A DNA stretch of 17,588 nucleotides from a virus. Taxonomy: Duplodnaviria > Heunggongvirae > Uroviricota > Caudoviricetes. The position numbers and the translations under genes are program-made. The stretch spans positions 1 to 17,588 of the IMG/VR virus record IMGVR_UViG_2734482774_000007. One strand, 5' to 3'. Positions 1,276-16,600 of this stretch are shown here, in pieces. The number at the start of each line of letters is the position of its first letter. Position 1 is the stretch's first letter. The notes beneath the pieces were generated by a model. The model was not told where the DNA came from, did no database searches, and saw nothing but the letters and a program-made list of their open reading frames with translations.

Positions 1276-1307
1276 AGTAGGGTCAAAGACCCTACTAATT
1301 ATTTTTT
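1276..1307. terminator. Bidirectional rho-independent terminator between convergent int and herA
   Basis: Perfect 9-bp stem agtagggtc / gaccctact (1276-1284 / 1288-1296) with loop aaa, T-run aattatttttt on the + strand and ttaaaattttt on the - strand. Confidence 0.7.
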
Positions 1308-3020
1308 CCATATATTGCAATAGCCTGGAGAATCAGATTCTGGTGGATATATTGGCTTATCTATCTGGATGGTCATAGGAATAGGGAAGTCAACCCCTAC
1401 AAGAGCAACTTCACCTTGTTTGAGACTTGGTAGAAAAGATGCTGCAGATTTATCAATTTCACCGCATGCACGCTCAACGACTTCTCGATCTCGGTCGTTT
1501 GTTAAGCGATGAACCAATAAGGTTCCAATTTGACTAAGCACACCTTCAGTGATATCTCTGGGTCTTTGAGTTGTTAAGCATATATTAAGGCCATATTTCC
1601 TGCCTTCTTTTGCAATCATCTCAAAAGCGTCAAGTTTAATTGCATGATCTTCAGAACCAACCCGTTTGCCAAGGAAGTTATGGGCTTCATCAACAATAAC
1701 TAACAGCGGTCTTGTTCTGAATTTTTCAAGCCTAGCTAAAGTTAAAAGTTTTCTGCCGATTACATTGGCTAAAATTTCTCTAGCATAAAACTCATAGCTA
1801 ACATCACTTAGGCATAACCTTAGGACTCGTTTATCAGATTGTAAAAAAGTTTCTAATATTTCACCTAGTGTGGATATATCCTCGTTACTATTAAAAACAG
1901 ACCTTAACGAGTTGGCATACGTTACTGCTTGAATTCTGGTTAACAAAGATGAGCAATAGCTTAAGTCTTGAGTTGCAGCGTTTCCCCAAGTATTATCTCC
2001 ATTATCGTAACAACATTCTTGTACAATCTGTTTTATAAGTTTTGTTATATCAAATGGTTGTGATGGATTATCAACAAGTTTAGAGTTGTCTCCAGTATTC
2101 ATTGCGCGTCGATAATCTGTTTTAGGTTGATTGATTTTTTTTAAAATACCATCGGTTGCTATTCTAGGTTCTAAAGCTACTAATCTAAGGCTTTTTATCG
2201 CTTCTTTTAGCTTAGGACCCTGTACTTTTCCAGAAGGATCGAACATGGCAATAAAGTCTGACTCAACAAAGTCGGTAGGTGGAATTCTAAATTCTAAAGA
2301 ATTTATGTTTTTATTTATTGGGGCACCTAAATGGTAATGTAAACAATAATCAGATTTAAACGATCTATACTCACTGGTTGCATCAATTATTATAGTTTTA
2401 GAGTTTTCGTAATTCGAACACTCTTCAATTAACTTGGAAGTTGTCCAACTTTTTCCACCGCCTGTAGCTCCTAAGATAGCACAATGACGACCGAAGAGTT
2501 TATCAGGTTCAACAGTTACTATACTTGTTGCCCCTCCAGATATAATGCCTAATACAATACCTATTCTTTCTTCCTCGTTATCTTTAATTCCTTTATTAAT
2601 TAATTCTGGTATTAAAGAAATAAAATCTAAGGGAGCAGAATAAACTCGATCTCCTAATCGAGGATATGATTTGATTCCTGAATCAATTCTAAAATTTGAA
2701 GGATCAATAGTTCCAAGAAGTTGTATAATGCCGATAGCATCAACTTTGAAGTTTCCTTGAGACCCGACAGATATTTCACCTCTATCTCGCTCTGGTAATT
2801 TAACCTCTATTAAACGGCCAAGAACAATAGATTGTTGTCCTTCTATTAATAATATTTCACCAACTTCTCCTTTTCCATATCTACAACCTTCTATATATGT
2901 TCCGCTGAGTTCCCCTGCATAGATTAAATTTGCTCTAACTGTTTGAGCAAAAATTGATGAGACTACTCCAACCTTAAGGTCGCCCCTCAAAATACCAAGC
3001 TGTAGTGTTGTATTAATCAT
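1299..3020 (-). CDS. herA: HerA-like ATPase, second gene of a SIR2-HerA anti-phage module
   Basis: 573-aa ORF. Walker A GATGGGKSWT and Walker B LLVIVDEAHNF. Start ATG overlaps the upstream gene's stop (ATGA at 3017-3020). Markedly AT-rich codon usage compared with flanking genes. Confidence 0.8.
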   Translation of the reverse strand: MINTTLQLGILRGDLKVGVVSSIFAQTVRANLIYAGELSGTYIEGCRYGKGEVGEILLIEGQQSIVLGRLIEVKLPERDRGEISVGSQGNFKVDAIGIIQLLGTIDPSNFRIDSGIKSYPRLGDRVYSAPLDFISLIPELINKGIKDNEEERIGIVLGIISGGATSIVTVEPDKLFGRHCAILGATGGGKSWTTSKLIEECSNYENSKTIIIDATSEYRSFKSDYCLHYHLGAPINKNINSLEFRIPPTDFVESDFIAMFDPSGKVQGPKLKEAIKSLRLVALEPRIATDGILKKINQPKTDYRRAMNTGDNSKLVDNPSQPFDITKLIKQIVQECCYDNGDNTWGNAATQDLSYCSSLLTRIQAVTYANSLRSVFNSNEDISTLGEILETFLQSDKRVLRLCLSDVSYEFYAREILANVIGRKLLTLARLEKFRTRPLLVIVDEAHNFLGKRVGSEDHAIKLDAFEMIAKEGRKYGLNICLTTQRPRDITEGVLSQIGTLLVHRLTNDRDREVVERACGEIDKSAASFLPSLKQGEVALVGVDFPIPMTIQIDKPIYPPESDSPGYCNIWKK

Positions 3021-4315
3021 AATTGATTGTTAACTCCTACTTGTTTTATTACCTTAGCCAACTGTTCTGCTGGGGTTAATGCTTTAAGATTGGGAACTAA
3101 TTTAACAAAATCACTGAAAGATGCATTTATGAAGTGAATGTCATAACCTGATAGTGAGAGTTGTTTTAGTAAATCCCAATATTTACTAGAACCGTCCCCC
3201 CCTTTATTCCGAATATGAGTTGCACATTTGAAATCTACTATAATCAACCTCATGCTTGGATTGGATTTTATTGCTGAGTAAATTGGTTCAGAAAGATGGT
3301 CATCATTGAAACCAAATCCAGATATAACTAAACAGTTATTTCTTTTTCTCAAGAAATCTAACAATCTTGAAAGTAATTCTAAGTGAGGTTGAATAAAGGC
3401 TTGCTGATATTTACCTTTCGCTGGATATATTAGACATGCGTTTGTTGCTGTTGGTTGGCTGGATTCATATATTTGCCCATCCTTTCTTATCCAACTTACA
3501 GAACCGTGGAGTTTAAATAACTGGAATACGCCCTCTACAAACTCATGCTCGTTTTCATCTCTTTTAACAACATCGTAGTTAAAATATTTACCATCGAATC
3601 TGCGAACTCCTGTATATGAAAGACCATCAACTACCATCATTCCTAATTCAGAAGCAGCTGTTTCAAAGGCTAAATCATAGTTAGTTGTGAAAACTTTTAG
3701 TCTAGGATCTCTGACTCTCCTCCTCCCCATTTTTTGTAATAAATTGATGTAAGCTGAAAGATCACAGTTGCCATCATCAATAAATGAGCGACATTTGTCT
3801 AAAATAATTGTTTTAACTTTATTTAAAAAATTCAACACTTCTTCATCATCATGAAATGCTAAATATGCTTCACAATTAGAAAGAAAGTGTTCTATGTTAG
3901 GATACTCTCGCTCTTTATATTTTACTTTATCACAAACAATTTGAGCATCAGGTTTTAATTGACCATCCTCGTTTATAGAAGATTCACTCCACATTGCACA
4001 CTTCCAGAGATCCCACATGCTTGGTCCTCCAACGTCCCCAAGCGAAGTACCACTCCCAGCGAAGAATGCAAGATTTGGGAATTGTAATGATTTTAGTAAT
4101 AGTTCGTTTATATATGCCTGATTGTCTTTCAACTCCTTCTTTTCACCATCAGTAAGAGATTGTGCTGGAGAAATAGAATCTCCTGACTCTTCTAAACTTT
4201 CATTCGTTATGTAGTCTCGCCAATAAATAAACGATTTACTATCTAATGCTTTCCAGTCGTTACTACCGGGTTTTAAAAATGAGATGTATCCGTCCGGATT
4301 TGTAGTCATAATCAT
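3017..4315 (-). CDS. sir2: SIR2-family (SIR2_2-type) putative NADase, first gene of the SIR2-HerA module
   Basis: 432-aa ORF. Rossmann-like FFAGSGTS, signature VFTTNYDLAFE (catalytic Asn) and FKLHGSVSW (catalytic His). Translationally coupled to herA. AT-rich. Confidence 0.8.
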   Translation of the reverse strand: MIMTTNPDGYISFLKPGSNDWKALDSKSFIYWRDYITNESLEESGDSISPAQSLTDGEKKELKDNQAYINELLLKSLQFPNLAFFAGSGTSLGDVGGPSMWDLWKCAMWSESSINEDGQLKPDAQIVCDKVKYKEREYPNIEHFLSNCEAYLAFHDDEEVLNFLNKVKTIILDKCRSFIDDGNCDLSAYINLLQKMGRRRVRDPRLKVFTTNYDLAFETAASELGMMVVDGLSYTGVRRFDGKYFNYDVVKRDENEHEFVEGVFQLFKLHGSVSWIRKDGQIYESSQPTATNACLIYPAKGKYQQAFIQPHLELLSRLLDFLRKRNNCLVISGFGFNDDHLSEPIYSAIKSNPSMRLIIVDFKCATHIRNKGGDGSSKYWDLLKQLSLSGYDIHFINASFSDFVKLVPNLKALTPAEQLAKVIKQVGVNNQL

Positions 4316-6499: not shown

Positions 6500-6571
6500 G
6501 GCTGCTCCGGTAGTGTTTTGTTGTTGTGTCAATTGTGCCGGGGTCCATACAAGCGCACTACCGAGGAGGAT

Positions 6572-6589
6572 TGTGTCAGTGACTGAACA
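6572..6589 (-). promoter_or_regulatory. Candidate Ogr/Delta-dependent late promoter element (TGT-N12-ACA) upstream of sid
   Basis: TGTgtcagtgactgaACA, centred about 80 bp upstream of the sid ATG. This spacing suits a site centred near -55 with a short leader, as in P2/P4 late promoters. Confidence 0.45.
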
Positions 6590-6665
6590 ATGACCTTGTT
6601 CTGGCTAGCCAGAGAAAGGTGTCATGTCTGATCTACACGCTTCCTTTAATACATACTATTCACCA

Positions 6666-6757
6666 CTGTTCACTTCAATAAAAATATAGTAAATACATGT
6701 GGTTAAGTGGTGTAGTGTTTTAATTAAAGTGATCATCTACTGTTCATGACTGTTCAC
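6666..6757 (+). repeat. Three direct copies of CTGTTCA(C/T) in the divergent control region; the last two overlap a second TGT-N12-ACA (6741-6758)
   Basis: ctgttcac at 6666-6673, ctgttcat at 6740-6747, ctgttcac at 6750-6757. TGTtcatgactgttcACA at 6741-6758. Confidence 0.35.
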
Positions 6758-7404
6758 AGAGATAAAATTAAACATATATTTCTTTTTCATATAAGTCGCG
6801 ATATTTATTTCAGTTTATTACTGGATCTTTTCTCCTCACCAATATTCACCAGTATTCAATACATATTCTATGTAAAGAATAAAAGATGTCTTATATCTGT
6901 TTGATAATTGAACATTCAACCTCCCTGCACTCAGTTGCATTTCAGGAAAATATTCATAAAAATGAATTTGTCTGATGTTCATTAAACACATTCGGATACA
7001 TGCGGAAGTAAGATGGTAATTTAATTTCTTTAATCATCGGATTTATTGATACATATGGTGAGCTGTTTATTTTTGGCCGTTTTTGGCTCTTTTATTAATC
7101 AGGTGTTGTCTTAGTGCTTATGATGTAAAGCCCTGAATGATATGGGCTGGTTCAGATTTGAGCTGTGATCCTGCCTAGTGTAATAGACTTTTTTATTATT
7201 GATGCTCCTTATTATATTCCATAAAGGAATTGTTTGTTTTTGTTCGTTTCATACGGTTTTTAGCTGTTTTATTTTTTGAGAAATCAACATTTCACACAAA
7301 ATAAATAAAGCATGCGCGAGCCGCTTATATAAACATAATAAGGAGCTACCTGAATCCGCATGGAATTGCCCGGACTGTTGTAAACATATTAGAGAGGTAG
7401 CCAG

Positions 7405-7665
7405 ATGAATAGTATTTCCGTTTCCACCCCGGCACCAGCTGCTCCGGTGCTCCCGGTTCCGGCTCAGCAGGAGCGCTTCATACGATTACCTGAAGTGATG
7501 CACCTTTGCGGGCTATCCCGTTCAACCATCTACGACCTTATCAGCCGCGATGCCTTCCCGCAGCAGATATCCCTGGGTGGAAAAAATGTGGCCTGGGTAC
7601 AGTCGGAGGTCAGTGCATGGATGGCGGCGCGAATTGCTGCCCGCGAGCAAGGAGGCCATGCGTGA
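7405..7665 (+). CDS. alpA: AlpA/Vis-family phage transcriptional regulator (excisionase-like HTH)
   Basis: 86 aa. [47 protein letters not shown] fits the AlpA family HTH pattern. SD GAGAGG 7 nt upstream. Sits where P4 carries vis. Confidence 0.8.
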
Positions 7666-7759
7666 AACTTGCTTTGCAGTCTCATCTCCTTTTTTCTGGC
7701 TTGCGTCCTGATATCTTTTCCAGGTATAGTTTTCCCGCTGCCGCAAAATCGGCTGCCGG

Positions 7760-8007
7760 GCGTAGGAACCCGAGTTACTTATTGGCGACACCAGACGCGC
7801 CGTGCGTCTTTTTTTACGTCGTTGCTCAGGCACACCCATTTTTCGGGCTGCGGTGCTTATACCTTAGCCCCTTTCAGATAATGGTGGTCCGGGCGGGGCA
7901 GCCTTCGGGCTGGCCGGTTTCCAATAAGGCCGGTATTCCTACCCCCGTTCGGGTCACCACCCATGAGCGTAGGAACTCCGGTGGTGGCATTTACCGCTAC
8001 TTATTGG
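7760..8007 (+). promoter_or_regulatory. P4-type RNA immunity region: seqA-like (7760-7785), seqB/CI-like (7921-7942), seqC-like (7967-8007)
   Basis: A and C share the identical 10-mers gcgtaggaac and tacttattgg. B (ccaataaggccggtattcctac) carries the reverse complements ccaataag and ttcctac, so B can pair with either A or C. The region also holds several GC stems, including a UUCG-loop hairpin ggcagccttcgggctg near 7897. Confidence 0.45.
7793..7815 (+). terminator. Rho-independent terminator directly after the seqA-like element
   Basis: Stem agacgc / gcgtct (7793-7798 / 7804-7809) with loop gccgt, followed by a 7-T run to 7815. Confidence 0.6.
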
Positions 8008-8209
8008 AGGTTGCCCTTATGGCTACGATCCTCGCCCCGTCACATCCTCAATTTATATTTGTTTTTGCCGCCGTTCGTCGTGCAGAACGTAAACCACGTA
8101 TCAGTATGCTGCGTATCATCGCCAGCAATGAGCATCATGCACGTCTTTCACTGGTCCATGAGTATGTGCTTTGTCTTGCTGCTCGCCTGCCTGTCCGGGA
8201 GGTGATCTA

Positions 8210-8434
8210 ATGAATCACGCCGCAATCTCTTATGACGATATTCTCCGCCTGAAGCATCTTCGTAACGTGGGAGAGTTTGTCACTGGAATGGCTGTTCTTC
8301 AGGATTGCTACGAAAAACCTGCCAGTGCTCAATGTGAACAACTGGTTTCCCTGATTTATCTGATGACAGAGCAGCTTGATGGCGTGGTACAGCGTTGCCA
8401 GGATGACCTCATGAACATGGAGGTGGTGCAATGA
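8210..8434 (+). CDS. Hypothetical small protein in the satellite left operon
   Basis: 74 aa from the ATG at 8210, which follows SD GGGAGG with a 7-nt spacer. Stop overlaps the next ORF's start (ATGA at 8431-8434). Confidence 0.55.
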
Positions 8435-8754
8435 AATCACGCACTCTTTCCCTTTCACTTCGGGTAGCGTTGTATCGCCGCGCGGTAGCCTGCGCCTGGT
8501 TGAGTGCCTGCTATCAGCAAAACCGCCATCTGCAGCTCACTCTGGATGAAATTGAAACCGCTATTGCCCGTGAGCTTGAAGGATTTTATCTGCGACAGCA
8601 CGGGCAAACAAAAGGCATGGAAATCGCCTGCGCCCTGCTTTCAGACCTGATGGAATACGGCCCTCTAATGTCCTGTCCCGCACTCTCCCAGCTCGGAATA
8701 GCCGTAATGGATGAGTTATGCGTCCGTCACATCAAAAAGCCGGTTTTACACTGA
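8431..8754 (+). CDS. Hypothetical protein in the satellite left operon, immediately upstream of the primase
   Basis: 107-aa ORF, translationally coupled to the upstream ORF and ending 14 nt before the primase start. Confidence 0.55.
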
Positions 8755-8768
8755 GGGAGAACTGCGTC

Positions 8769-11102
8769 ATGTCAGGAATGAAAGTCAGTCAGGCCGTGAA
8801 GGCTGCCCGCGGTCACTGGGCTCAGATTCTGCCAGCGCTGGGCGTGAATATATTGAAAAATCGCCATCAGCCTTGCCCGGTCTGTGGCGGTAAAGATCGT
8901 TTTCGCTTCGACGATCAGGAAGGACGCGGAACATGGTTCTGCAATCAGTGCGGAGCCGGGGATGGTTTAGCGCTTGTCACCAGGGCACTGAATGTGGATA
9001 TCAGTGAAGCAGCTGACAGGATACATGGACTGACACATGATCTGTCTATAGTTAATTCCGAGGTCAGGACGTTAACCGCCGATACCGATAGCGGGAAAGA
9101 TGCAGCGGCAGCACTTGCCGCGCGACTGCTGCAAGCCTCGCGTGAATCTGCCGGAAACACTTATCTTACACATAAAGGTTTCCCGGAGCATATTTGCCAT
9201 GAGCTGACTTCAGCTCATAAGGCCGGTGGTGTGATGTTCCGCCCCGGTGATTTGATCGTCCCACTCTATAACGCTGACGGGGAGCTGGTGAATATTCAGC
9301 TTATCAGTGGCAATGGTAGCAAGTGTTTTCTTAAAGGAGGTCAGGTTAAGGAGGCCTATCATCTGATAGAAGGGGGCGGGAGTTCTGTAAGAAGGATTTG
9401 GATTGCGGAAGGTTACGCCACGGCGCTTACCATTCATTATTTGACAGGAGAAGCCGTCATGGTGGCATTTTCGTCGGTCAACTTTCTTTCTCTGAGCAGC
9501 GTTGCCCATAATAAGTATCCTGGATATCAGTTAATTATTGCAGCGGACCGCGATCTGAATGGTTCAGGCCAGAACAGGGCTGAAACTGCTGCAAAAGCGA
9601 GTCAGTGTGACATTGTGCTGCCACCGGTTTTTGGTGACTGGAATGATGCGCTTACCCAATACGGAGAGGAATCCACCCGGAAGGCAATTCTTGAGGCTTT
9701 GAAGCCACATAACGCCAGTCCTTTCGACACAATGAGTGAAGCAGAATTCACAGCGATGAGTGTCAGCGAAAAAGCTCAGAGGGTTCGGGAGCATTACAGG
9801 GATGCACTGGCGGTTGATCCGAACGGGCAGCTTTTATCCCGCTACGAGTCTGGAGCGTGGAAAGTTATTTCTCAGTCAGATTTTGCCCGAGATGTCGCAG
9901 CCCTTTTCCAGCGCCTCGGGGCACCGTTTTCCTCAGGAAAAATTGCCTCACTGGTGGAAACATTAAAGTTAATTGTTCCGCAGCAGCAAAATCCGTCACG
10001 TCATCTGATTGGTTTTCGTAATGGCGTTCTCGATACGCGAACAGGGCTTTTTAGTCCGCACTGTAAAGAGAACTGGCTGCGTACCCTGTGTGAAGTCGAT
10101 TTCACGCCACCGGTAAAGGGGGAAACGCTTGAAACTCATGCCCCGGCATTCTGGCGTTGGTTGGACCGGGCCGCCGGACACAAGCCAGCAAAACGCGACA
10201 TTATTCTTGCAGCGTTATTTATGGTGCTGGCGAACCGTTATGACTGGCAGCTCTTTCTGGAAGTGACTGGCCCTGGTGGAAGTGGCAAAAGTATTCTGGC
10301 TGAAATTGCGACCATGCTTGCTGGAGAGGATAACGCCACCTCTGCGACCATTGAAACGCTGGAGTCCCCGCGAGAACGTGCGGCTCTGATAGGTTTTTCT
10401 CTTATTCGCCTGCCTGATCAGGAGAAGTGGAGCGGCGACGGCGCCGGGCTTAAGGCTATAACTGGTGGCGATGCAGTATCTGTGGACCCCAAATATCAGA
10501 ATGCTTATTCAACACATATTCCGGCGGTTATCCTGGCCGTAAATAATAATCCTATGCGCTTCACTGATCGCAGTGGTGGTGTGTCCCGCAGGAGAGTTAT
10601 TCTGCATTTTCCTGAGCAGATAGCACCGGAAGAACGCGATCCGCAGTTGAAAGATAAAATTGCACGAGAACTGGCTGTGATTGTTCGTCAGCTCATGCAG
10701 CGTTTCAGCGATCCGATGAGCGCCAGAACATTGCTTCAGTCGCAGCAGAATTCTGATGAGGCTCTCACCATCAAGCGTGATGCTGATCCAGCATTTGATT
10801 TTTGTGGCTACCTTGAGGCATTACCTGACACCAACGGCATGTTTATGGGGAACGCCAATATTGTCCCGCGCCAGCCACGTACGTACCTTTACCATGCCTA
10901 TCTCGTATACATGGAGGCTAATGGCTTTAAAAATACCCTTAGCCTGACAATGTTTGGCAAAGGGCTACCAGTTATGCTGAAGGAATACGGGCTAAATTAT
11001 GAGAAGCGGCGAACTAATCAGGGAATGCAGACTAACCTCACTTTAAAAGAGGAAAGTAATGCAGACTGGCTTCCCAAGTGTGATGAGCTAACAATCAAAT
11101 AA
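8769..11102 (+). CDS. P4 alpha-type primase-helicase
   Basis: 777 aa from the ATG at 8769 (SD GAGGGAGA 9 nt upstream); the track's 8718 start is non-ATG. Zinc-binding primase motif CPVCGGKDRFRFDD...CNQCG; Walker A GPGGSGKS in the C-terminal helicase part. Length equals that recalled for P4 alpha. Confidence 0.9.
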   Translation: MSGMKVSQAVKAARGHWAQILPALGVNILKNRHQPCPVCGGKDRFRFDDQEGRGTWFCNQCGAGDGLALVTRALNVDISEAADRIHGLTHDLSIVNSEVRTLTADTDSGKDAAAALAARLLQASRESAGNTYLTHKGFPEHICHELTSAHKAGGVMFRPGDLIVPLYNADGELVNIQLISGNGSKCFLKGGQVKEAYHLIEGGGSSVRRIWIAEGYATALTIHYLTGEAVMVAFSSVNFLSLSSVAHNKYPGYQLIIAADRDLNGSGQNRAETAAKASQCDIVLPPVFGDWNDALTQYGEESTRKAILEALKPHNASPFDTMSEAEFTAMSVSEKAQRVREHYRDALAVDPNGQLLSRYESGAWKVISQSDFARDVAALFQRLGAPFSSGKIASLVETLKLIVPQQQNPSRHLIGFRNGVLDTRTGLFSPHCKENWLRTLCEVDFTPPVKGETLETHAPAFWRWLDRAAGHKPAKRDIILAALFMVLANRYDWQLFLEVTGPGGSGKSILAEIATMLAGEDNATSATIETLESPRERAALIGFSLIRLPDQEKWSGDGAGLKAITGGDAVSVDPKYQNAYSTHIPAVILAVNNNPMRFTDRSGGVSRRRVILHFPEQIAPEERDPQLKDKIARELAVIVRQLMQRFSDPMSARTLLQSQQNSDEALTIKRDADPAFDFCGYLEALPDTNGMFMGNANIVPRQPRTYLYHAYLVYMEANGFKNTLSLTMFGKGLPVMLKEYGLNYEKRRTNQGMQTNLTLKEESNADWLPKCDELTIK

Positions 11103-11697: not shown

Positions 11698-12548
11698 TTA
11701 TATCTGCCCGCCTACACCTTTAAACTTCTCAATAAACGCGACGATCTTCTGGAAAACCGTCTGTTTTTTCGTCTTATATTGCGGATTTAACGGACTGAGT
11801 TTTGGCAATGTCTCGTTTAATTCCGTGCCATTTTCGGTGGCGTATTCGCGTTTTAAAGACGTGCGAATATAGCGTTTCGCCGCCTCTTCATTGAGATTTT
11901 CTTCTTTGATCAAGGCTTCTGCTTCACGTTGCTGTTCGCGTTGAGCAAAGGTAAAAAACGCGTCAATGATGCTGGCTTTATCCGGCAAATCATCCAGGTT
12001 CGTTTGCTGAATAAAATCGACCACCAGACCTTCTTTGGCACGGTTACCAAGGCTCGAACGAATTAAGCGCTTGACCTCTTCGGTCATTTCGCCCTTACCT
12101 TTGTTTTGTCTGTTGTGTTCGAAAATCAGTCCAAGGATATAATCCAGGTTTATTTCCTGAGACTTCAGCAAATCGACCTCAAAAACCACGTCATCCCAGT
12201 CGGTGGTTGATTTTTCTTTTTTGTCAGCTTCTTTCTCACGGCGCTGCCAGTCACGAATATCGTTATAGGCTGAACGATAATCCTGAATCTTGCGATCAGC
12301 AGGGAGACGAATTATTTGCAATTCAGCGAGCTTTTCATCATCCACATAATGTTCTGCTTTGAATTTTTCTACTGCAACAGGATCACTAAGATCGATTTGT
12401 TGCAGGGCTTTCAGCGTGGCAAATTCATCATAGTTTTGCAGGATGTTCTCGGCACGCAGGTATTCACCAAACAGTTTTACGAAGTCTTTCTTCTCTTTTT
12501 CACTTTCAATATTGGCAGGGTCAGGGAACCGTTGTTCCAGTTCTGAAA
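11698..12548 (-). pseudogene. Type I restriction enzyme R subunit (HsdR) C-terminal fragment
   Basis: The frame is open from about 12545 to the stop at 11698 (about 283 codons) with no plausible ATG/RBS at its 5' end. Helical sequence ([10 protein letters not shown]..., [43 protein letters not shown]) resembles the conserved HsdR C-terminal domain as recalled. No helicase or nuclease motifs are present. Confidence 0.5.
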
Positions 12549-12803
12549 CTAGATGAAGTAGCCTTTGGTTTTGATGGCATCGTCTTTAATGTCATCAGTT
12601 ATTACGCTGTCATCCAGTTTCGCATAACAGATACTGTCATCACCGGCTTCAATATAGCTGGAAAAATTTTCGCTGATAAAACGGTAGAAAAGCGCGCCCA
12701 GAACGTATTGCTTAAAGTCCCATCCATCGACCGAACCTCTGACATCGTTAGCAATTTGCCAGATCTGGCGATGAAGCTCCGCGCGCTGCTGAAGACTGGT
12801 CAT
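12549..12803 (-). pseudogene. Type I R-M methyltransferase (HsdM) N-terminal fragment, truncated after 84 codons
   Basis: LQQRAELHRQIWQIANDVRGSVDGWDFKQYVLGALFYRFISENF is a typical HsdM N-terminal domain signature. Good RBS (AAGGA, 6-nt spacer) at the ATG at 12803. The frame ends in TAG and continues in another frame into the HsdR-like sequence, with no methyltransferase motifs. Confidence 0.65.
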
Positions 12804-13109
12804 TTTTTATCCTTTGAATGTGTTTTTAACGTCGGCTTTTGCCGGGATTTTACCGGAAGTTTTTTGGTTTTTCAGATTTGTATGATGGTGAGGAGGGGAT
12901 TCAGCACCAGATTGTTAGTGCATCTTACTCAGCATTCACCGCTTGAGTCAGGAGGCTACTTTATATGTCCATCGTCCATCCGTAGGTGATCAGATAATTT
13001 ATTGCGAGTCACCTTCCCGATTTTCAATCTCATTATTTACCCAATCTTTCACCAGTGGATAATTCGTCTGCTACTAACGGCGAGTGTATTTTTTTACGGA
13101 TGAAAGATT

Positions 13110-13943
13110 ATGCAAACAGAAGCTGAAGTCTTAACCGATCATAACGAACTAATTTGCTCGACCAGTATTGAGCGTATCGTCACAGGACGTGATAGTGCAC
13201 TGAACCAGATAGCGGCGTTAATCCAAAAGCTTGATGATATCTCCAGCCTGACATCCAGTATTGGCGGTGATGTGGCTGGAACCTGGGCAATGCGTAATGG
13301 ATATGCCTTTGATTGCTGGCTGATGCAGCCAACCGACAAAGCGATGCCGGTGATCACCCGAAATATCGATCGCAGTATCTGGCGCGATCTCATGCTGAAG
13401 TCCGGGATGTTGACTCTGATGGATGCCGAAGCCCGCAGTCAGTGGGCAAAGAACCTGGAGGAGGGCGATCTCCCGGCGATTAGCGAAGCCAACATCCTGA
13501 GTACCTTTGAACAACTTCACCACAATAAGCAGGACGTTTTCGAACGTGGGATTATCAATGTATTTAAGGGATTAAGCTGGGACTACAAAACCAATAATCC
13601 CTGTTATTTCGGTAAGAAGATTATCGTTAACAATCTGGTGAAGCATGACAGATGGGGCTACAGCCTGAACTGGGGCTGGCGGCGAGATCAGCTTGCCGAT
13701 CTGGAACGGATGTTCTATCTGCTGGATGGGAAGACCATTCCCGATAACCGGCATGATGTTGCGATTCGGTTTATGGACTTCGTTAGTGCTCACCCGCATG
13801 AACAGGTATTTGATGACGATTTATTTGTCATCCGCTATTACCAGAAAGGCAGTGGGCATATCACTTTCAAGCGACTGGATCTGGTGGATAAGATGAATGA
13901 TATCGTGGCGAAGCACTTTCCGTCAGCGTTATCAGCAAAATGA
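13110..13943 (+). CDS. Hypothetical protein (277 aa) immediately upstream of the AbiE pair
   Basis: Long ORF with ordinary codon usage and no motif I can assign by eye. Ends 70 bp before the AbiEi-like start on the same strand. Confidence 0.6.
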   Translation: MQTEAEVLTDHNELICSTSIERIVTGRDSALNQIAALIQKLDDISSLTSSIGGDVAGTWAMRNGYAFDCWLMQPTDKAMPVITRNIDRSIWRDLMLKSGMLTLMDAEARSQWAKNLEEGDLPAISEANILSTFEQLHHNKQDVFERGIINVFKGLSWDYKTNNPCYFGKKIIVNNLVKHDRWGYSLNWGWRRDQLADLERMFYLLDGKTIPDNRHDVAIRFMDFVSAHPHEQVFDDDLFVIRYYQKGSGHITFKRLDLVDKMNDIVAKHFPSALSAK

Positions 13944-14012
13944 ATGTCGTATGTTTGCTATCTAAAATGTCGTATTTTTGCTACTCTTTATGCAATGACT
14001 CTGGAGGCGAAT

Positions 14013-14408
14013 ATGACGATAAAAGCACGCATTCAGTCACGACTGAAACGTTCTAAACGTTACGTATTCACTCGTGACGACTTTAAAGATATTGCAGGCT
14101 ACGATCAGGTTGGTCGGGTATTGCGCGAGCTTGTCAGGGAAGGGCAACTGTTGAAGGTTGGTTATGGCGTGTATACCAAAGCACGGCGGAACGGTATTAC
14201 AGGCAAGGTAATGCCAGCGGCTCCCGGAGGCTCTTCAGCGGTGATTGTCGAAACGCTGGAACGCCTGAAAGTACGCTATCGTTTTGCTGGCGCAACGCAG
14301 GCATACAATAGCGGTACTTCTACGCAGATCCCAGCTTCACCCGAGATAAAAACCCCCCGGCGTTTTAAACGCGTATTATCTGTAGGGAACAGCAGATTAA
14401 ATGGATGA
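14013..14408 (+). CDS. AbiEi-family antitoxin / transcriptional regulator (type IV TA, abortive infection)
   Basis: 131 aa from the ATG at 14013 (SD GGAGG, 5-nt spacer). N-terminal RYVFTRDDFKDIAGYDQVGRVLRELVREGQLLKVGYGVYTKA fits the AbiEi winged-helix pattern. Stop overlaps the AbiEii start by 8 nt. Confidence 0.7.
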   Translation: MTIKARIQSRLKRSKRYVFTRDDFKDIAGYDQVGRVLRELVREGQLLKVGYGVYTKARRNGITGKVMPAAPGGSSAVIVETLERLKVRYRFAGATQAYNSGTSTQIPASPEIKTPRRFKRVLSVGNSRLNG

Positions 14409-15348
14409 TTTAACCACTCTTTTTTCTGAAGTGGCTGACGCGCTTGGTATTGAGTCTGTCGCAATTGTGGAAAAAGATCACTATATCGTTGAGCTTTTGC
14501 AATTGCTTAAACCTCTGGTGTTCGATACTCATCAATTGGTATTTGCCGGAGGAACCGCTCTGGCAAAATCAGGTGTCGCACTTAATCGCATGTCGGAAGA
14601 TGTGGATATCAAACTGGTGCCTAAGGATGCATTTCAGGCACTTTCCCGCACTCAGCGAAAAAATACCCGTAAAGAAATTGTTCAGGCAGTTTCCAGTGCA
14701 ATAGCTTCATCGGGTGTGTTCAATTTTGATGATGATTACCCAAAAGTGACGCGGGATGAATATCGTTATAATGACATACCTGTTCGTTATCCACAGCGAG
14801 TAGTGCAGGCACCTTGTTTGCGTCCTTTTATCCGGCTGGAATTGATGGAAGCGAAGTTACTGGAGCCTTCTGAATTACGGGATATTCATTCACTGGTAAC
14901 AGGGATCACGGGAAAAGCGGCTATTGTTTCAGCGTTTCCATGCGCAACTATCATTAGCTCACAGGCAGAAAAGCTGGTGGCGATGTTACGTCGTACTGCG
15001 GCAGTTGTGCGAGATGTTGAGCGATTTGATGATGCATCGCTGGTACGTCATATCTACGATACAAACTGTATTGTTGAGACGAGTCATGTTGATATGAGTC
15101 TGCTCGTTGATTTTGTTCAACAAACTATTGAGCAGGACATTCAGCGTTACGGCAACCAGTACCCGCAGTTTTGCGCGTCTCCAGTTGATGAGCTAAAAAT
15201 GGGACTGGATGAGTTGGCGAACAATCCTCTCTACGAGATGCGCTATCAGCAGTTTGTTTCGCCAATGGTGTATGGAGAGCGAAAGATCACATGGGATGAG
15301 GCTTACTCCAGGTTTAGGAGCTTAGCGCTAGCCATCCTGAATGCTTGA
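14401..15348 (+). CDS. AbiEii-family nucleotidyltransferase toxin (type IV TA, abortive infection)
   Basis: 315 aa. Nucleotidyltransferase motif LVFAGGTALAKSGVALNRMSEDVDIKL (GG...S-E-D-x-D) near the N-terminus. Confidence 0.8.
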   Translation: MDDLTTLFSEVADALGIESVAIVEKDHYIVELLQLLKPLVFDTHQLVFAGGTALAKSGVALNRMSEDVDIKLVPKDAFQALSRTQRKNTRKEIVQAVSSAIASSGVFNFDDDYPKVTRDEYRYNDIPVRYPQRVVQAPCLRPFIRLELMEAKLLEPSELRDIHSLVTGITGKAAIVSAFPCATIISSQAEKLVAMLRRTAAVVRDVERFDDASLVRHIYDTNCIVETSHVDMSLLVDFVQQTIEQDIQRYGNQYPQFCASPVDELKMGLDELANNPLYEMRYQQFVSPMVYGERKITWDEAYSRFRSLALAILNA

Positions 15349-15385
15349 TATGCAGCATTGTCTTTACTTGAAATTCTGAAATTCT

Positions 15386-15571
15386 CTAAACCATAGAGAT
15401 GATTTTTATGATCCAGTCTTTCTCTTGTTGAGATAGTTCCAGTTTGCTCACTCGTGTTAAGAAGGTATTGATCACCTGAACATCCGAATTGGTGAGCCTA
15501 TTTAATAGAGCGGGTGGTATACCTTTACTAACAATCGCTTTGCGGTGACTTTCGTAGTTTTTATTACTCAT
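15386..15571 (-). CDS. Small hypothetical protein (61 aa)
   Basis: ATG at 15569-15571 preceded by GAGGA with a 6-nt spacer. AT-rich. No recognisable motif. Confidence 0.4.
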   Translation of the reverse strand: MSNKNYESHRKAIVSKGIPPALLNRLTNSDVQVINTFLTRVSKLELSQQEKDWIIKIISMV

Positions 15572-15636
15572 TGTTGATCCTCAAATATCATTGTATGGCG
15601 GCATTGATCGTTTCCAGCAACCTTTACTTACTCACT

Positions 15637-15813
15637 TCAAACTGCATCCTCGTAGACTGTTCCACTACAATAATCGAAAAGGCGTGGATGTCCATTCAGG
15701 TATCCCGCTAATACGTATAGCAATAACAATGGTTTATGCGGTGCGCGCTGTTCACCCTTATGCCAGATTTTTATATTGGCAATTGCCTGCTGTAGCGATT
15801 TACTGGAAGCCAT
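15637..15813 (-). CDS. Small hypothetical protein (about 58 aa from the internal ATG)
   Basis: The track ORF starts at a TTG (15870). The internal ATG at 15811-15813 (MASSKSLQQ...) is preceded by AGGGA with a 5-nt spacer. Could be a fragment. Confidence 0.3.
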   Translation of the reverse strand: MASSKSLQQAIANIKIWHKGEQRAPHKPLLLLYVLAGYLNGHPRLFDYCSGTVYEDAV

Positions 15814-15949
15814 TGATATCCCTGGCAGTGAAATAATTGCGATCATGCTCGCAAATTTTCTGCTGTTCAAGCCTGCAAGTGAAGATATATTACTTTGATC
15901 TCATTTGTTTTTTTGCTGCTTGTTCTGAGAACGTATAAGGACATTCTCT

Positions 15950-16600
15950 ATGAATAAACTCCCCGATCATCTTCCGCGGCGGTATATCATCGAAGCTATT
16001 CATTTATGGGATGCGGGAGAAACTCATCAGTTCCAGCCTGCACGGTTGTATGAAATTGAATATCATGGCCGACGTTACCCCTCGAAGGCGATTGCTGGCA
16101 TCGCAGCGACATTGATGACGGGGACGCAATTTACCCCTGCGGATTTCACCGGCGGAATAAAATCTAAATGTGTCAAGCTACTCATAGAGCAGGGATTTCA
16201 TATTCATCAGGATAAAGCCGCTGCGGCTCCCATAGCCGACGTTCTGTTCCCGGATGAGCTGCCGTCGCAGGGGACCTACGTTGAAGGTGCGGCGATAAAG
16301 GTGACAGTAAACCGCTATGAACGCGATAAAAAGGCCCGAGATAAAGCGGTCGAACATCATGGATGCCAATGCAACGTATGCGGCGTTGATCTGGTGAAGA
16401 TCTATGGTGATATCGCTGAAGGCTTTATCCATGTGCATCACCTGGTGCCGCTTTCAGCCATTAAAGAGGATTACCAGCTGGATCCAGTTAATGATTTGCT
16501 TCCTGTGTGCCCTAATTGCCATGCGATGCTGCACCGACGCAAACCACCGTTTACGCCGGAGCAGTTAAAAGCGCTAATGGATGCGAATAAATCAAATTAA
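15950..16600 (+). CDS. HNH endonuclease family protein with an uncharacterised N-terminal domain
   Basis: 216 aa. C-terminal HNH/zinc-binding motif CQCNVCG...HVHHLVPLS...NDLLPVCPNCHAMLH. SD AAGGA upstream. Stop is 7 bp from the convergent nanS stop. Confidence 0.8.
   Translation: MNKLPDHLPRRYIIEAIHLWDAGETHQFQPARLYEIEYHGRRYPSKAIAGIAATLMTGTQFTPADFTGGIKSKCVKLLIEQGFHIHQDKAAAAPIADVLFPDELPSQGTYVEGAAIKVTVNRYERDKKARDKAVEHHGCQCNVCGVDLVKIYGDIAEGFIHVHHLVPLSAIKEDYQLDPVNDLLPVCPNCHAMLHRRKPPFTPEQLKALMDANKSN

Follow-up and report, generated by a model that had tools for sequence, protein, structure and literature searches.

The CI RNA of P4-type elements is a stable RNA of ~79 nucleotides (nt) that arises by processing (RNase P, PNPase) and on which termination of transcription at t1, t4, and timm depends. 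Retronphage phiR73 is, to our knowledge, the one other P4-like immunity type to have been studied experimentally. CI-dependent termination is the mechanism described for P4 (PMC4825925; PMC10111431), the P4 mechanism is also treated in PMC3632133, and the RNA families catalogued in Rfam as C4 and isrK correspond to the P4 CI RNA and the seqA leader, respectively (PMC3632133; PMC4825925; PMC10111431). In the P4 model, the constitutive promoter has kil as its first translatable gene, and Kil is under immunity; full-length Eta is translated only from an upstream late promoter, in coupling with the alpA homologue, and its translation prevents termination (PMC10111431). We focus here on positions 7666-8209 of a 17,588-nt stretch of viral DNA (Caudoviricetes; IMG/VR record IMGVR_UViG_2734482774_000007), referred to as the window. 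Judged from its sequence, this region is a P4-type CI/C4 RNA immunity cassette, comprising a small antisense RNA and two target sites, of a kind already catalogued in Rfam.

The window is a P4-like satellite prophage of Escherichia coli inserted at tRNA-Leu, and its positions 7300-8700 show 100% identity to E. coli strain D6 (NZ_CP010148). Its genes run from the integrase through a defence hotspot, delta/psu/sid, alpA, the immunity region, and DUF5375 to the alpha primase, and the stretch from vis to orf106 shares its gene order and ~71% of its DNA sequence with phage P4. An Rfam scan of the whole window returned two matches above curated thresholds, C4 and isrK, and the immunity region of P4 yields the same matches in the same order. 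Synteny with P4 and membership of the same Rfam families together make the region an ortholog of the P4 immunity region, which is more than a resemblance. It is very probable, the full mechanistic reading included, that the cassette maintains lysogeny (immunity) as the ortholog of the P4 PLE-seqA-t1-cI-seqC-kil/eta region.

The CI/C4 antisense RNA itself occupies 7877-7964 (plus strand, as for all features below unless stated otherwise) and has a stem-bounded core of 78 nt (7882-7959). It matches the Rfam C4 model (RF01695) over model positions 1-87 of 87 with 83.4 bits (gathering threshold 45, E 1.8e-15); the CI RNA of P4 scores 74.9 bits against the same model. Its minimum free energy (MFE) fold coincides with the family structure, an outer stem (7882-7959) around two hairpins, at -47.2 kcal/mol and a z-score of -3.25. 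Among 116 sequences, compensatory double-sided changes occur at 12 of the 24 consensus pairs of the CI stems; the invariant inner pairs were imposed by the search pattern and carry no weight.

A preliminary description of this DNA, made from the letters and their open reading frames (ORFs), had noted two direct repeats (7760-7785 and 7967-8007), an element at 7921-7942 with the reverse complements of both repeat halves, and a terminator at 7793-7815 right after the first repeat, and had proposed P4-like immunity following the seqA/seqB/seqC logic with a different sequence. These proposals stand: the repeats read as given, the complementarity is exact over 7-9 nt, the terminator is recovered both by a terminator scan and by the isrK model, and the P4 logic is backed by synteny, Rfam scores, and compensated box changes. 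One repeat unit, GCGTAGGAAC, lies at 7760-7769 and 7967-7976, and the other, TACTTATTGG, at 7776-7785 and 7998-8007. Between the two copies lie the reverse complements CCAATAAG (7921-7928) and TTCCTAC (7936-7942). Within 7920-7947, the inverted matches CTTATTGG(A) versus (T)CCAATAAG are exact over 8 and 9 nt, and the pairing of GTAGGAA with TTCCTAC extends to 12 nt (92% complementary) and 13 nt (85%). Taken alone, GCGTAGGAAC is unimpressive, with at least two matches in 37 of 200 shuffles of the window, and single-motif counts of this sort are weak statistics; the case rests on the family models and on relatives. On the evidence from relatives, the joint pattern of repeats and complements is far beyond chance.

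At the RNA level, the complementarity falls into an a box and a b box, the arrangement also seen in P1/P7 c4. Within CI, box b' (CCAAUAAG, 7921-7928) forms the 12-nt loop of the second inner hairpin, and box a' (UUCCUAC, 7936-7942) lies in the single-stranded junction. The upstream target consists of box a1 (GUAGGAA, 7762-7768), an exact complement of a' placed in the loop of leader hairpin 2 by the isrK structure line and the fold, and box b1 (CUUAUUGG, 7778-7785), an exact complement of b' that is single-stranded between hairpin 2 and the terminator. The downstream, seqC-type target begins with box a2 (GUAGGAA, 7969-7975) as its first half and continues with box b2 (CUUAUUGGA, 8000-8008), a 9-nt exact complement of UCCAAUAAG that overlaps the kil Shine-Dalgarno sequence GGAGG (8006-8010). 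The position of b2, +53 from the CI core, is the same in Enterobacterales relatives.

Relatives were gathered by searching one genome of each species for the conserved core of CI, with loop and junction left free, which retrieved at least 120 stretches. The 110 loci with complete flanks among the matches listed, drawn from many Proteobacteria, were used for a complementarity test. Their loop and junction sequences are very diverse, and the boxes nevertheless show at least 7 nt of exact complementarity to their own flanks in 81-95% of the loci (a1 95%, b1 81%, a2 95%, b2 90%), as against 1-5% for noncognate pairings. The covariance comparison that the preliminary description had suggested came out in favour of its proposal, as did the RNA folding of CI. 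Box offsets of -133, -117, +22, and +53 are fixed in most Enterobacterales. Residual mismatches are of the G·U type in 43 cases versus the A·C type in 11, a count over phylogenetically non-independent loci that serves as supporting evidence with no p-value attached. The G·U excess, together with complementarity largely confined to cognate partners, argues for plus-strand RNA-RNA pairing and not for DNA symmetry. Compared with P4, whose boxes read GUGAGAA / UUCACAGG / CCUGUGAA / UUCUCAC, the window has GUAGGAA / CUUAUUGG / CCAAUAAG / UUCCUAC; the changes are compensated at all three sites, and the flanks are conserved. Since both boxes differ from those of P4 and the differences are compensated in CI, heteroimmunity to P4 is predicted.

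Upstream of the first target, a PLE-like promoter can be placed by alignment to P4 and by conservation, with a putative -35 hexamer TTGCGT (7701-7706), an 18-nt spacer, and a -10 hexamer TATAGT (7725-7730). The latter aligns exactly with the '-10 consensus' annotated in the P4 record X02534. In 41 distinct loci, hexamers of the form TTGC.. and TA(T/C)AGT keep a constant spacing to the leader hairpin, with TTGACA in distant ones. By analogy with P4 genetics, from which its activity is carried over, this would be a constitutive PLE-type promoter just upstream of seqA. The leader RNA that follows (7737-7815) is SeqA/IsrK-like, with two hairpins, boxes a1 and b1, and an intrinsic terminator. It matches Rfam isrK (RF01394) at full length over 7737-7814, including the terminal hairpin and U-run, with 72.1 bits (gathering threshold 50).

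The intrinsic terminator (7793-7815), called in the terminator scan as a stem-loop (7793-7809) followed by six T (7810-7815), is nearly identical in the P4 alignment and is the presumed counterpart of P4 t1. Pairing of CI with a1/b1 was reportedly found by Briani and co-workers in 2000 to enhance termination at t1 and to autoregulate CI. A second hairpin (7979-7996), terminator-like in the same scan, sits between a2 and b2 and is followed by CUACUUAUU; it is a candidate counterpart of t4, the P4 terminator reportedly treated in the same work of Briani and co-workers. Further downstream, alignment places a stretch homologous to the Rho-dependent terminator timm of P4 at 8019-8175; the timm fragment corresponds to X51522 8365-8209 (PMC3177188).

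Both RNA elements are overlaid by coding sequence. Directly upstream of the cassette lies the alpA/vis homologue (7405-7665, 86 amino acids (aa); Pfam Phage_AlpA, E 4e-20), which is 64% identical to P4 Vis/ORF88. Its stop codon overlaps the GTG start, at 7662, of an eta-like ORF of 182 aa (7662-8210; sequence GTGA at the junction) that spans both RNA elements and has Kil as its C-terminal part. This start aligns exactly with P4 ATGATGATG, where eta begins (triple ATG), and the encoded protein is 53% identical to P4 Eta. The preliminary description had found no convincing coding frame here and no ribosome-binding site (RBS) for the long ORF. Neither statement holds: a Shine-Dalgarno sequence AGGAGG (7650-7655) precedes the GTG by 6 nt, and the last 63 aa of the 182-aa ORF are Kil/Icd-like. 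They constitute the kil/icd-like gene (ATG 8019, 8019-8210; NCBIfam phage_ICD_like, 70.4 bits, cut-off 25), the product of which is 71% identical to P4 Kil (65 aa). By analogy with P4, kil would be the first gene translatable from the PLE transcript. That description had also held a conserved protein in the region to speak against an RNA system. An eta-like/Kil protein is indeed encoded, but the argument does not apply as it was framed, because the nested eta/kil arrangement belongs to the P4 mechanism (PMC10111431).

In strain D6 the 182-aa ORF is annotated by PGAP as the coding sequence (CDS) WP_000761643, and in thousands of E. coli genomes RefSeq/PGAP labels this CDS either 'host cell division inhibitor Icd-like protein' or 'ash family protein'. 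The Icd-like domain is confined to aa 131-178, and Pfam Phage_ASH (PF10554) matches aa 22-131; this Pfam family appears to model the translation of DNA that encodes isrK-like and C4 RNAs. Upstream of kil, its frame is open for at least 330 nt in 34 of 36 P4-like loci, compared with 11% and 0% for the other two frames, and the two exceptions look like mis-assigned start frames. Where the same RNA cassette stands in a non-P4 context, an open frame of that length precedes the kil-like start in only 24% of loci. As the frame is open mainly in P4-like loci, the RNA elements are the universally conserved unit and the eta frame is an addition of P4-like satellites.

The kil leader (7960-8025) is itself predicted to be closed (MFE -26.8, z -3.1): the Shine-Dalgarno sequence would pair with CUCC (7976-7979), and the start-codon region with CCAUGAG. 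A similar, translationally inactive form has been described for the isrK-orf45 mRNA. Immediately after kil lies a 74-aa ORF (8210-8434) whose start overlaps the kil stop (TAATG). It matches no Pfam or NCBIfam family and has no similarity to P4 epsilon or orf151; the satellite may lack an Epsilon-type helper derepressor or may have an unrelated one.

The mechanism proposed for the cassette builds on the RNA family membership, structure, box complementarity and co-variation, promoter and terminator motifs, and nested ORFs observed at this locus. Transcription from the constitutive promoter (-10 TATAGT, 7725-7730) would start near 7737, and part of the transcripts would end at 7793-7815 to give a leader RNA of ~79 nt (SeqA/IsrK-like). 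Transcripts that read through would be processed to a stable CI/C4 RNA of ~78 nt (7882-7959). Pairing of the CI boxes a'/b' with a1/b1 of the nascent leader would then promote termination at the leader terminator, and thus CI autoregulation. Pairing of the same boxes with a2/b2, just upstream of kil, would leave kil untranslated, with the overlap of b2 and the kil Shine-Dalgarno sequence as the proposed cause. Transcription would not reach the replication genes (DUF5375 and alpha primase, 8431-11102) but would end at the hairpin 7979-7996 and/or through Rho within 8019-8175, and these downstream genes would remain silent. Once a helper-activated late promoter upstream of alpA fires, alpA-coupled ribosomes would translate the eta-like ORF (7662-8210) through the RNA targets, and late transcripts translated in this way would become insensitive to immunity.

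Several points weigh against this account. The dynamic steps, from promoter activity and processing of the RNA to CI-dependent termination and the translation of eta, would all be as in P4, from whose genetics they are transferred, and the assignment of P4 t1 and t4 to hairpins of the window is presumptive. A generic sigma-70 scan called no promoter upstream of the leader, the reason being the weak -35 hexamer. The leader folds no better on its own than shuffled sequence (z -0.04). It also falls just under the gathering threshold of Rfam c4-a1b1 (RF03163; 43.8 bits versus 46.7, E 1.2e-9, 7724-7776). The P4 leader, at 44.1 bits, is likewise below 46.7, so this threshold cannot separate true P4-type leaders, and the overlapping isrK model is passed. 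Finally, RNAduplex energies, a crude measure, only loosely favour cognate over P4 targets; they are given little weight because flanking stem bases confound the values.

Two alternatives to the P4-type account keep the RNA and change what it does. Control could be purely translational, of the P1/P7 c4-icd type, such that the RNA would only mask the kil/icd RBS, downstream silencing would be polarity, and a1/b1 would have no direct role in termination. Such control would fit the position of b2 over the Shine-Dalgarno sequence GGAGG, the Icd-like nature of the downstream ORF, the two-box a/b layout, which is that of c4 (Rfam C4, c4-a1b1), and a kil initiation region predicted to fold shut by itself (z -3.1). 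It is unlikely nonetheless. The terminator right after a1/b1 is co-conserved in P4, in the isrK model, and in relatives, which is hard to explain if a1/b1 are irrelevant to termination; CI-dependent termination has been described for P4 (PMC4825925; PMC10111431); and Pfam and NCBIfam scans revealed no Ant-type antirepressor downstream.

The other alternative is an IsrK-type two-RNA switch, in which the leader (7737-7815) would act in trans, sequestering CI or opening the kil initiation region, and would activate downstream expression. The leader does match the isrK family, and with a1/b1 identical to a2/b2 it could compete for CI. IsrK of Gifsy-1 acts in trans on a read-through mRNA with a processed C4-like RNA, STnc1160, downstream (PMC4825925), and IsrK-like elements of P4-like prophages were required in transposon-directed insertion site sequencing (TraDIS) of S. 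Typhi (PMC3632133). However, the decoy idea failed in Gifsy-1, where STnc1160 co-expression did not relieve IsrK-mediated growth arrest, and the genes downstream in the window are P4 replication genes, not anrP/antQ, although no search was aimed at AnrP or AntQ. Such a switch is improbable here. Both the translational and the IsrK-type alternatives are variants within the same known system.

It is far less probable that the region is simply a protein gene ('Ash/Icd-like', 182 aa) whose repeats are incidental or encode protein repeats. A single PGAP CDS does span the region, Phage_ASH covers aa 22-131, and the frame is open in P4-like elements, but the same RNA cassette with co-varying boxes occurs in other Proteobacteria with no long ORF across it (a frame of 330 nt or more is open in only 24% of those loci), and the compensatory changes keep base pairs, not amino acids. 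The G·U bias and covariance-model scores well above threshold point the same way, and the old P4 'cI/ash' ORF has been reinterpreted as the CI RNA gene (PMC4825925; PMC10111431; PMC3632133). We give hardly any credence to a DNA-level reading in which the boxes would serve as iterons or operators and a protein would bind them in both orientations. Short direct and inverted boxes are typical of operators and P4-type elements carry iterons nearby, but the mismatches show the plus-strand G·U asymmetry (43 vs 11), a co-varying RNA structure holds the inverted copies in its loop and junction, one of the targets reaches into a Shine-Dalgarno sequence, and no cognate variable DNA-binding protein is evident.

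Beyond the P4-type reading, a more elaborate one is conceivable, if rather doubtful: a two-RNA toggle in which the ~79-nt leader with a1/b1 would work in trans, either as a decoy for CI or as an activator, the role proposed for IsrK, and, separately, a and b boxes that reassort as independent modules to give a combinatorial immunity code. If true, this code would be further constrained in P4-like elements, where the eta frame must stay open at all six box positions. Among the matches listed (loci L004-L123), CCAAUAAG occurs with UUCCUAC, UACGCCAA, ACUGCAAA, UUCUCAC, and UUUCCAC; there, at least nine different b' loops accompany UUCCUAC, and at least four different a' boxes accompany CCAAUAAG. 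This distribution suggests that the a and b specificity boxes reassort independently. The exact allele pair of the window, CCAAUAAG/UUCCUAC, is also present in Enterobacter, Ewingella, and Pantoea genomes among the matches listed.

Other observations concern variants and copy number of the cassette. Some metagenome-assembled contigs, of Pseudomonadota/gammaproteobacterial origin, carry paired C4-type cassettes 2-4 kb apart; in one (L035, 3641-3691 and 7566-7616) the a'/b' boxes differ slightly between the copies, and in another (L097, 189-239 and 2210-2260) they are identical. An otherwise identical cassette on an IMG/VR contig (L144, 3300013025_000066, ~9150-9250, minus strand) carries A in place of G on the 3' side of the b' hairpin stem (GGCCAGT vs GGCCGGT), and its CI may be weakened or mutant. 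The a2..b2 target (GTAGGAAC-N15-35-CTTATTGGAGG) had 22 matches when viral contigs were scanned, of which 18, the L144 copy included, were the same cassette with its own CI. The remaining four were isolated matches inside unrelated AT-rich coding sequence and were taken as chance, so that no trans targets of this CI allele in other phages were found in the viral contigs beyond the cassette itself.

The system is rated as already known because the cassette is very common, Rfam models detect it, and IsrK/C4 pairs of P4-like prophages have been published. The cassette is intact here; some match to its 311 nt is present in 3038 of 5426 complete E. coli genomes, at up to 5 places in a genome, and 170 E. 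coli records match it at 99% identity or more. The main value of the assignment is therefore one of annotation, RefSeq/PGAP naming the stretch solely as a protein with no noncoding RNA feature annotated; no new biological question is opened. Recognition of the cassette does give the immunity type of the satellite, whose allele is predicted to be heteroimmune to P4, and typing of this kind could help to predict coexistence or exclusion among P4-like satellites, which often carry defence cargo (here SIR2-HerA and AbiE).

In the integrase-proximal hotspot of the satellite, a SIR2-like protein (3017-4315, minus strand) and a HerA-type ATPase (1299-3020, minus strand) make up a SIR2-HerA anti-phage defence pair (PADLOC E 7e-82 and 2e-166). 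To the right of the alpha primase (~11700-16600) lie a C-terminal fragment of a type I restriction R subunit (11698-12345, minus strand), DUF4942 (13110-13943), an AbiEi/AbiEii pair (13944-15348), and an HNH protein (15950-16600). At most 78% of the window is covered by any complete E. coli genome, and thus part of the right-side cargo is missing from the closest relatives. Upstream of the cassette, a cluster just upstream of sid (6534-6758) contains four of the five TGT-N12-ACA dyads present in the window. Ogr/Delta activators act on sites of this kind at the Psid and PLL promoters of P4. Short repeats similar to TGTTCAC/TATTCAC at ~6660-6860 resemble the iterons of the P4 ori.

Among the described systems, the C4-like cassettes of N15/phiKO2-type and Stx phages give BLAST matches over the isrK-C4 part but control antirepressors, not satellite replication genes. 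In phiKO2, a terminator is followed downstream by Icd and AntA/AntB; the phiKO2 copy was not picked up by the search pattern used. The Stx2a phage copy has its own set of a1/b1, a'/b', and a2/b2, and specificity shared with non-satellite phages was considered and rejected, the boxes of the Stx2a-phage C4-like RNA differing from those of the window. Gifsy-1 IsrK/STnc1160 (RF01394) is alike in its leader, since that of the window matches isrK over its full length including the terminator, and in a processed C4-like RNA downstream with shared complementarity. Its output, in contrast, is activation of orf45-anrP and then antQ, whereas kil and P4-type replication genes lie downstream in the window.

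The c4 system of P1/P7 (RF01695, RF03163) shares with the window the RNA family, the fold, the a'/b' boxes, and the provision of one upstream and one downstream target pair, the latter covering the RBS of an Icd-like gene. It differs in the genes under control. Pfam and NCBIfam scans found no antirepressor domain downstream of the Icd-like gene, where the 74-aa ORF, DUF5375, and the alpha primase are located, and with no ant gene the window does not belong to the P1 c4-icd-ant operon type; its controlled genes are those of satellite replication. In addition, the RNA of the window is embedded in an eta-like ORF, and an intrinsic terminator follows a1/b1.

P4 is the closest match. The cassette occupies the same position between vis/alpA and the replication genes at ~71% DNA identity, in the order vis/alpA, putative promoter, seqA, terminator, cI, seqC, kil nested in eta, orf106/DUF5375, and alpha. 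The -10 hexamer, a TTGC-type -35, the leader hairpins, the terminator, the CI stems, the kil Shine-Dalgarno sequence and ATG, and the position of the eta start all align. In both elements the downstream target overlaps the kil initiation region, and kil is the C-terminal part of an eta gene that starts at the vis stop. Protein identity to P4 is 70% for Orf106, alongside the values given above for Kil (71%), Vis (64%), and Eta (53%). The two differ in a terminator-CI spacer that is 45 nt shorter in the window and not conserved, in the eta start (GTG in the window vs ATG in P4), in the epsilon/orf151 segment, which is replaced in the window by the unrelated 74-aa ORF, and in the sequences of box a (GUAGGAA vs GUGAGAA in P4) and box b (CUUAUUGG vs UUCACAGG in P4). 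The cassette is an already-known system, and only its specificity allele sets it apart from that of P4.

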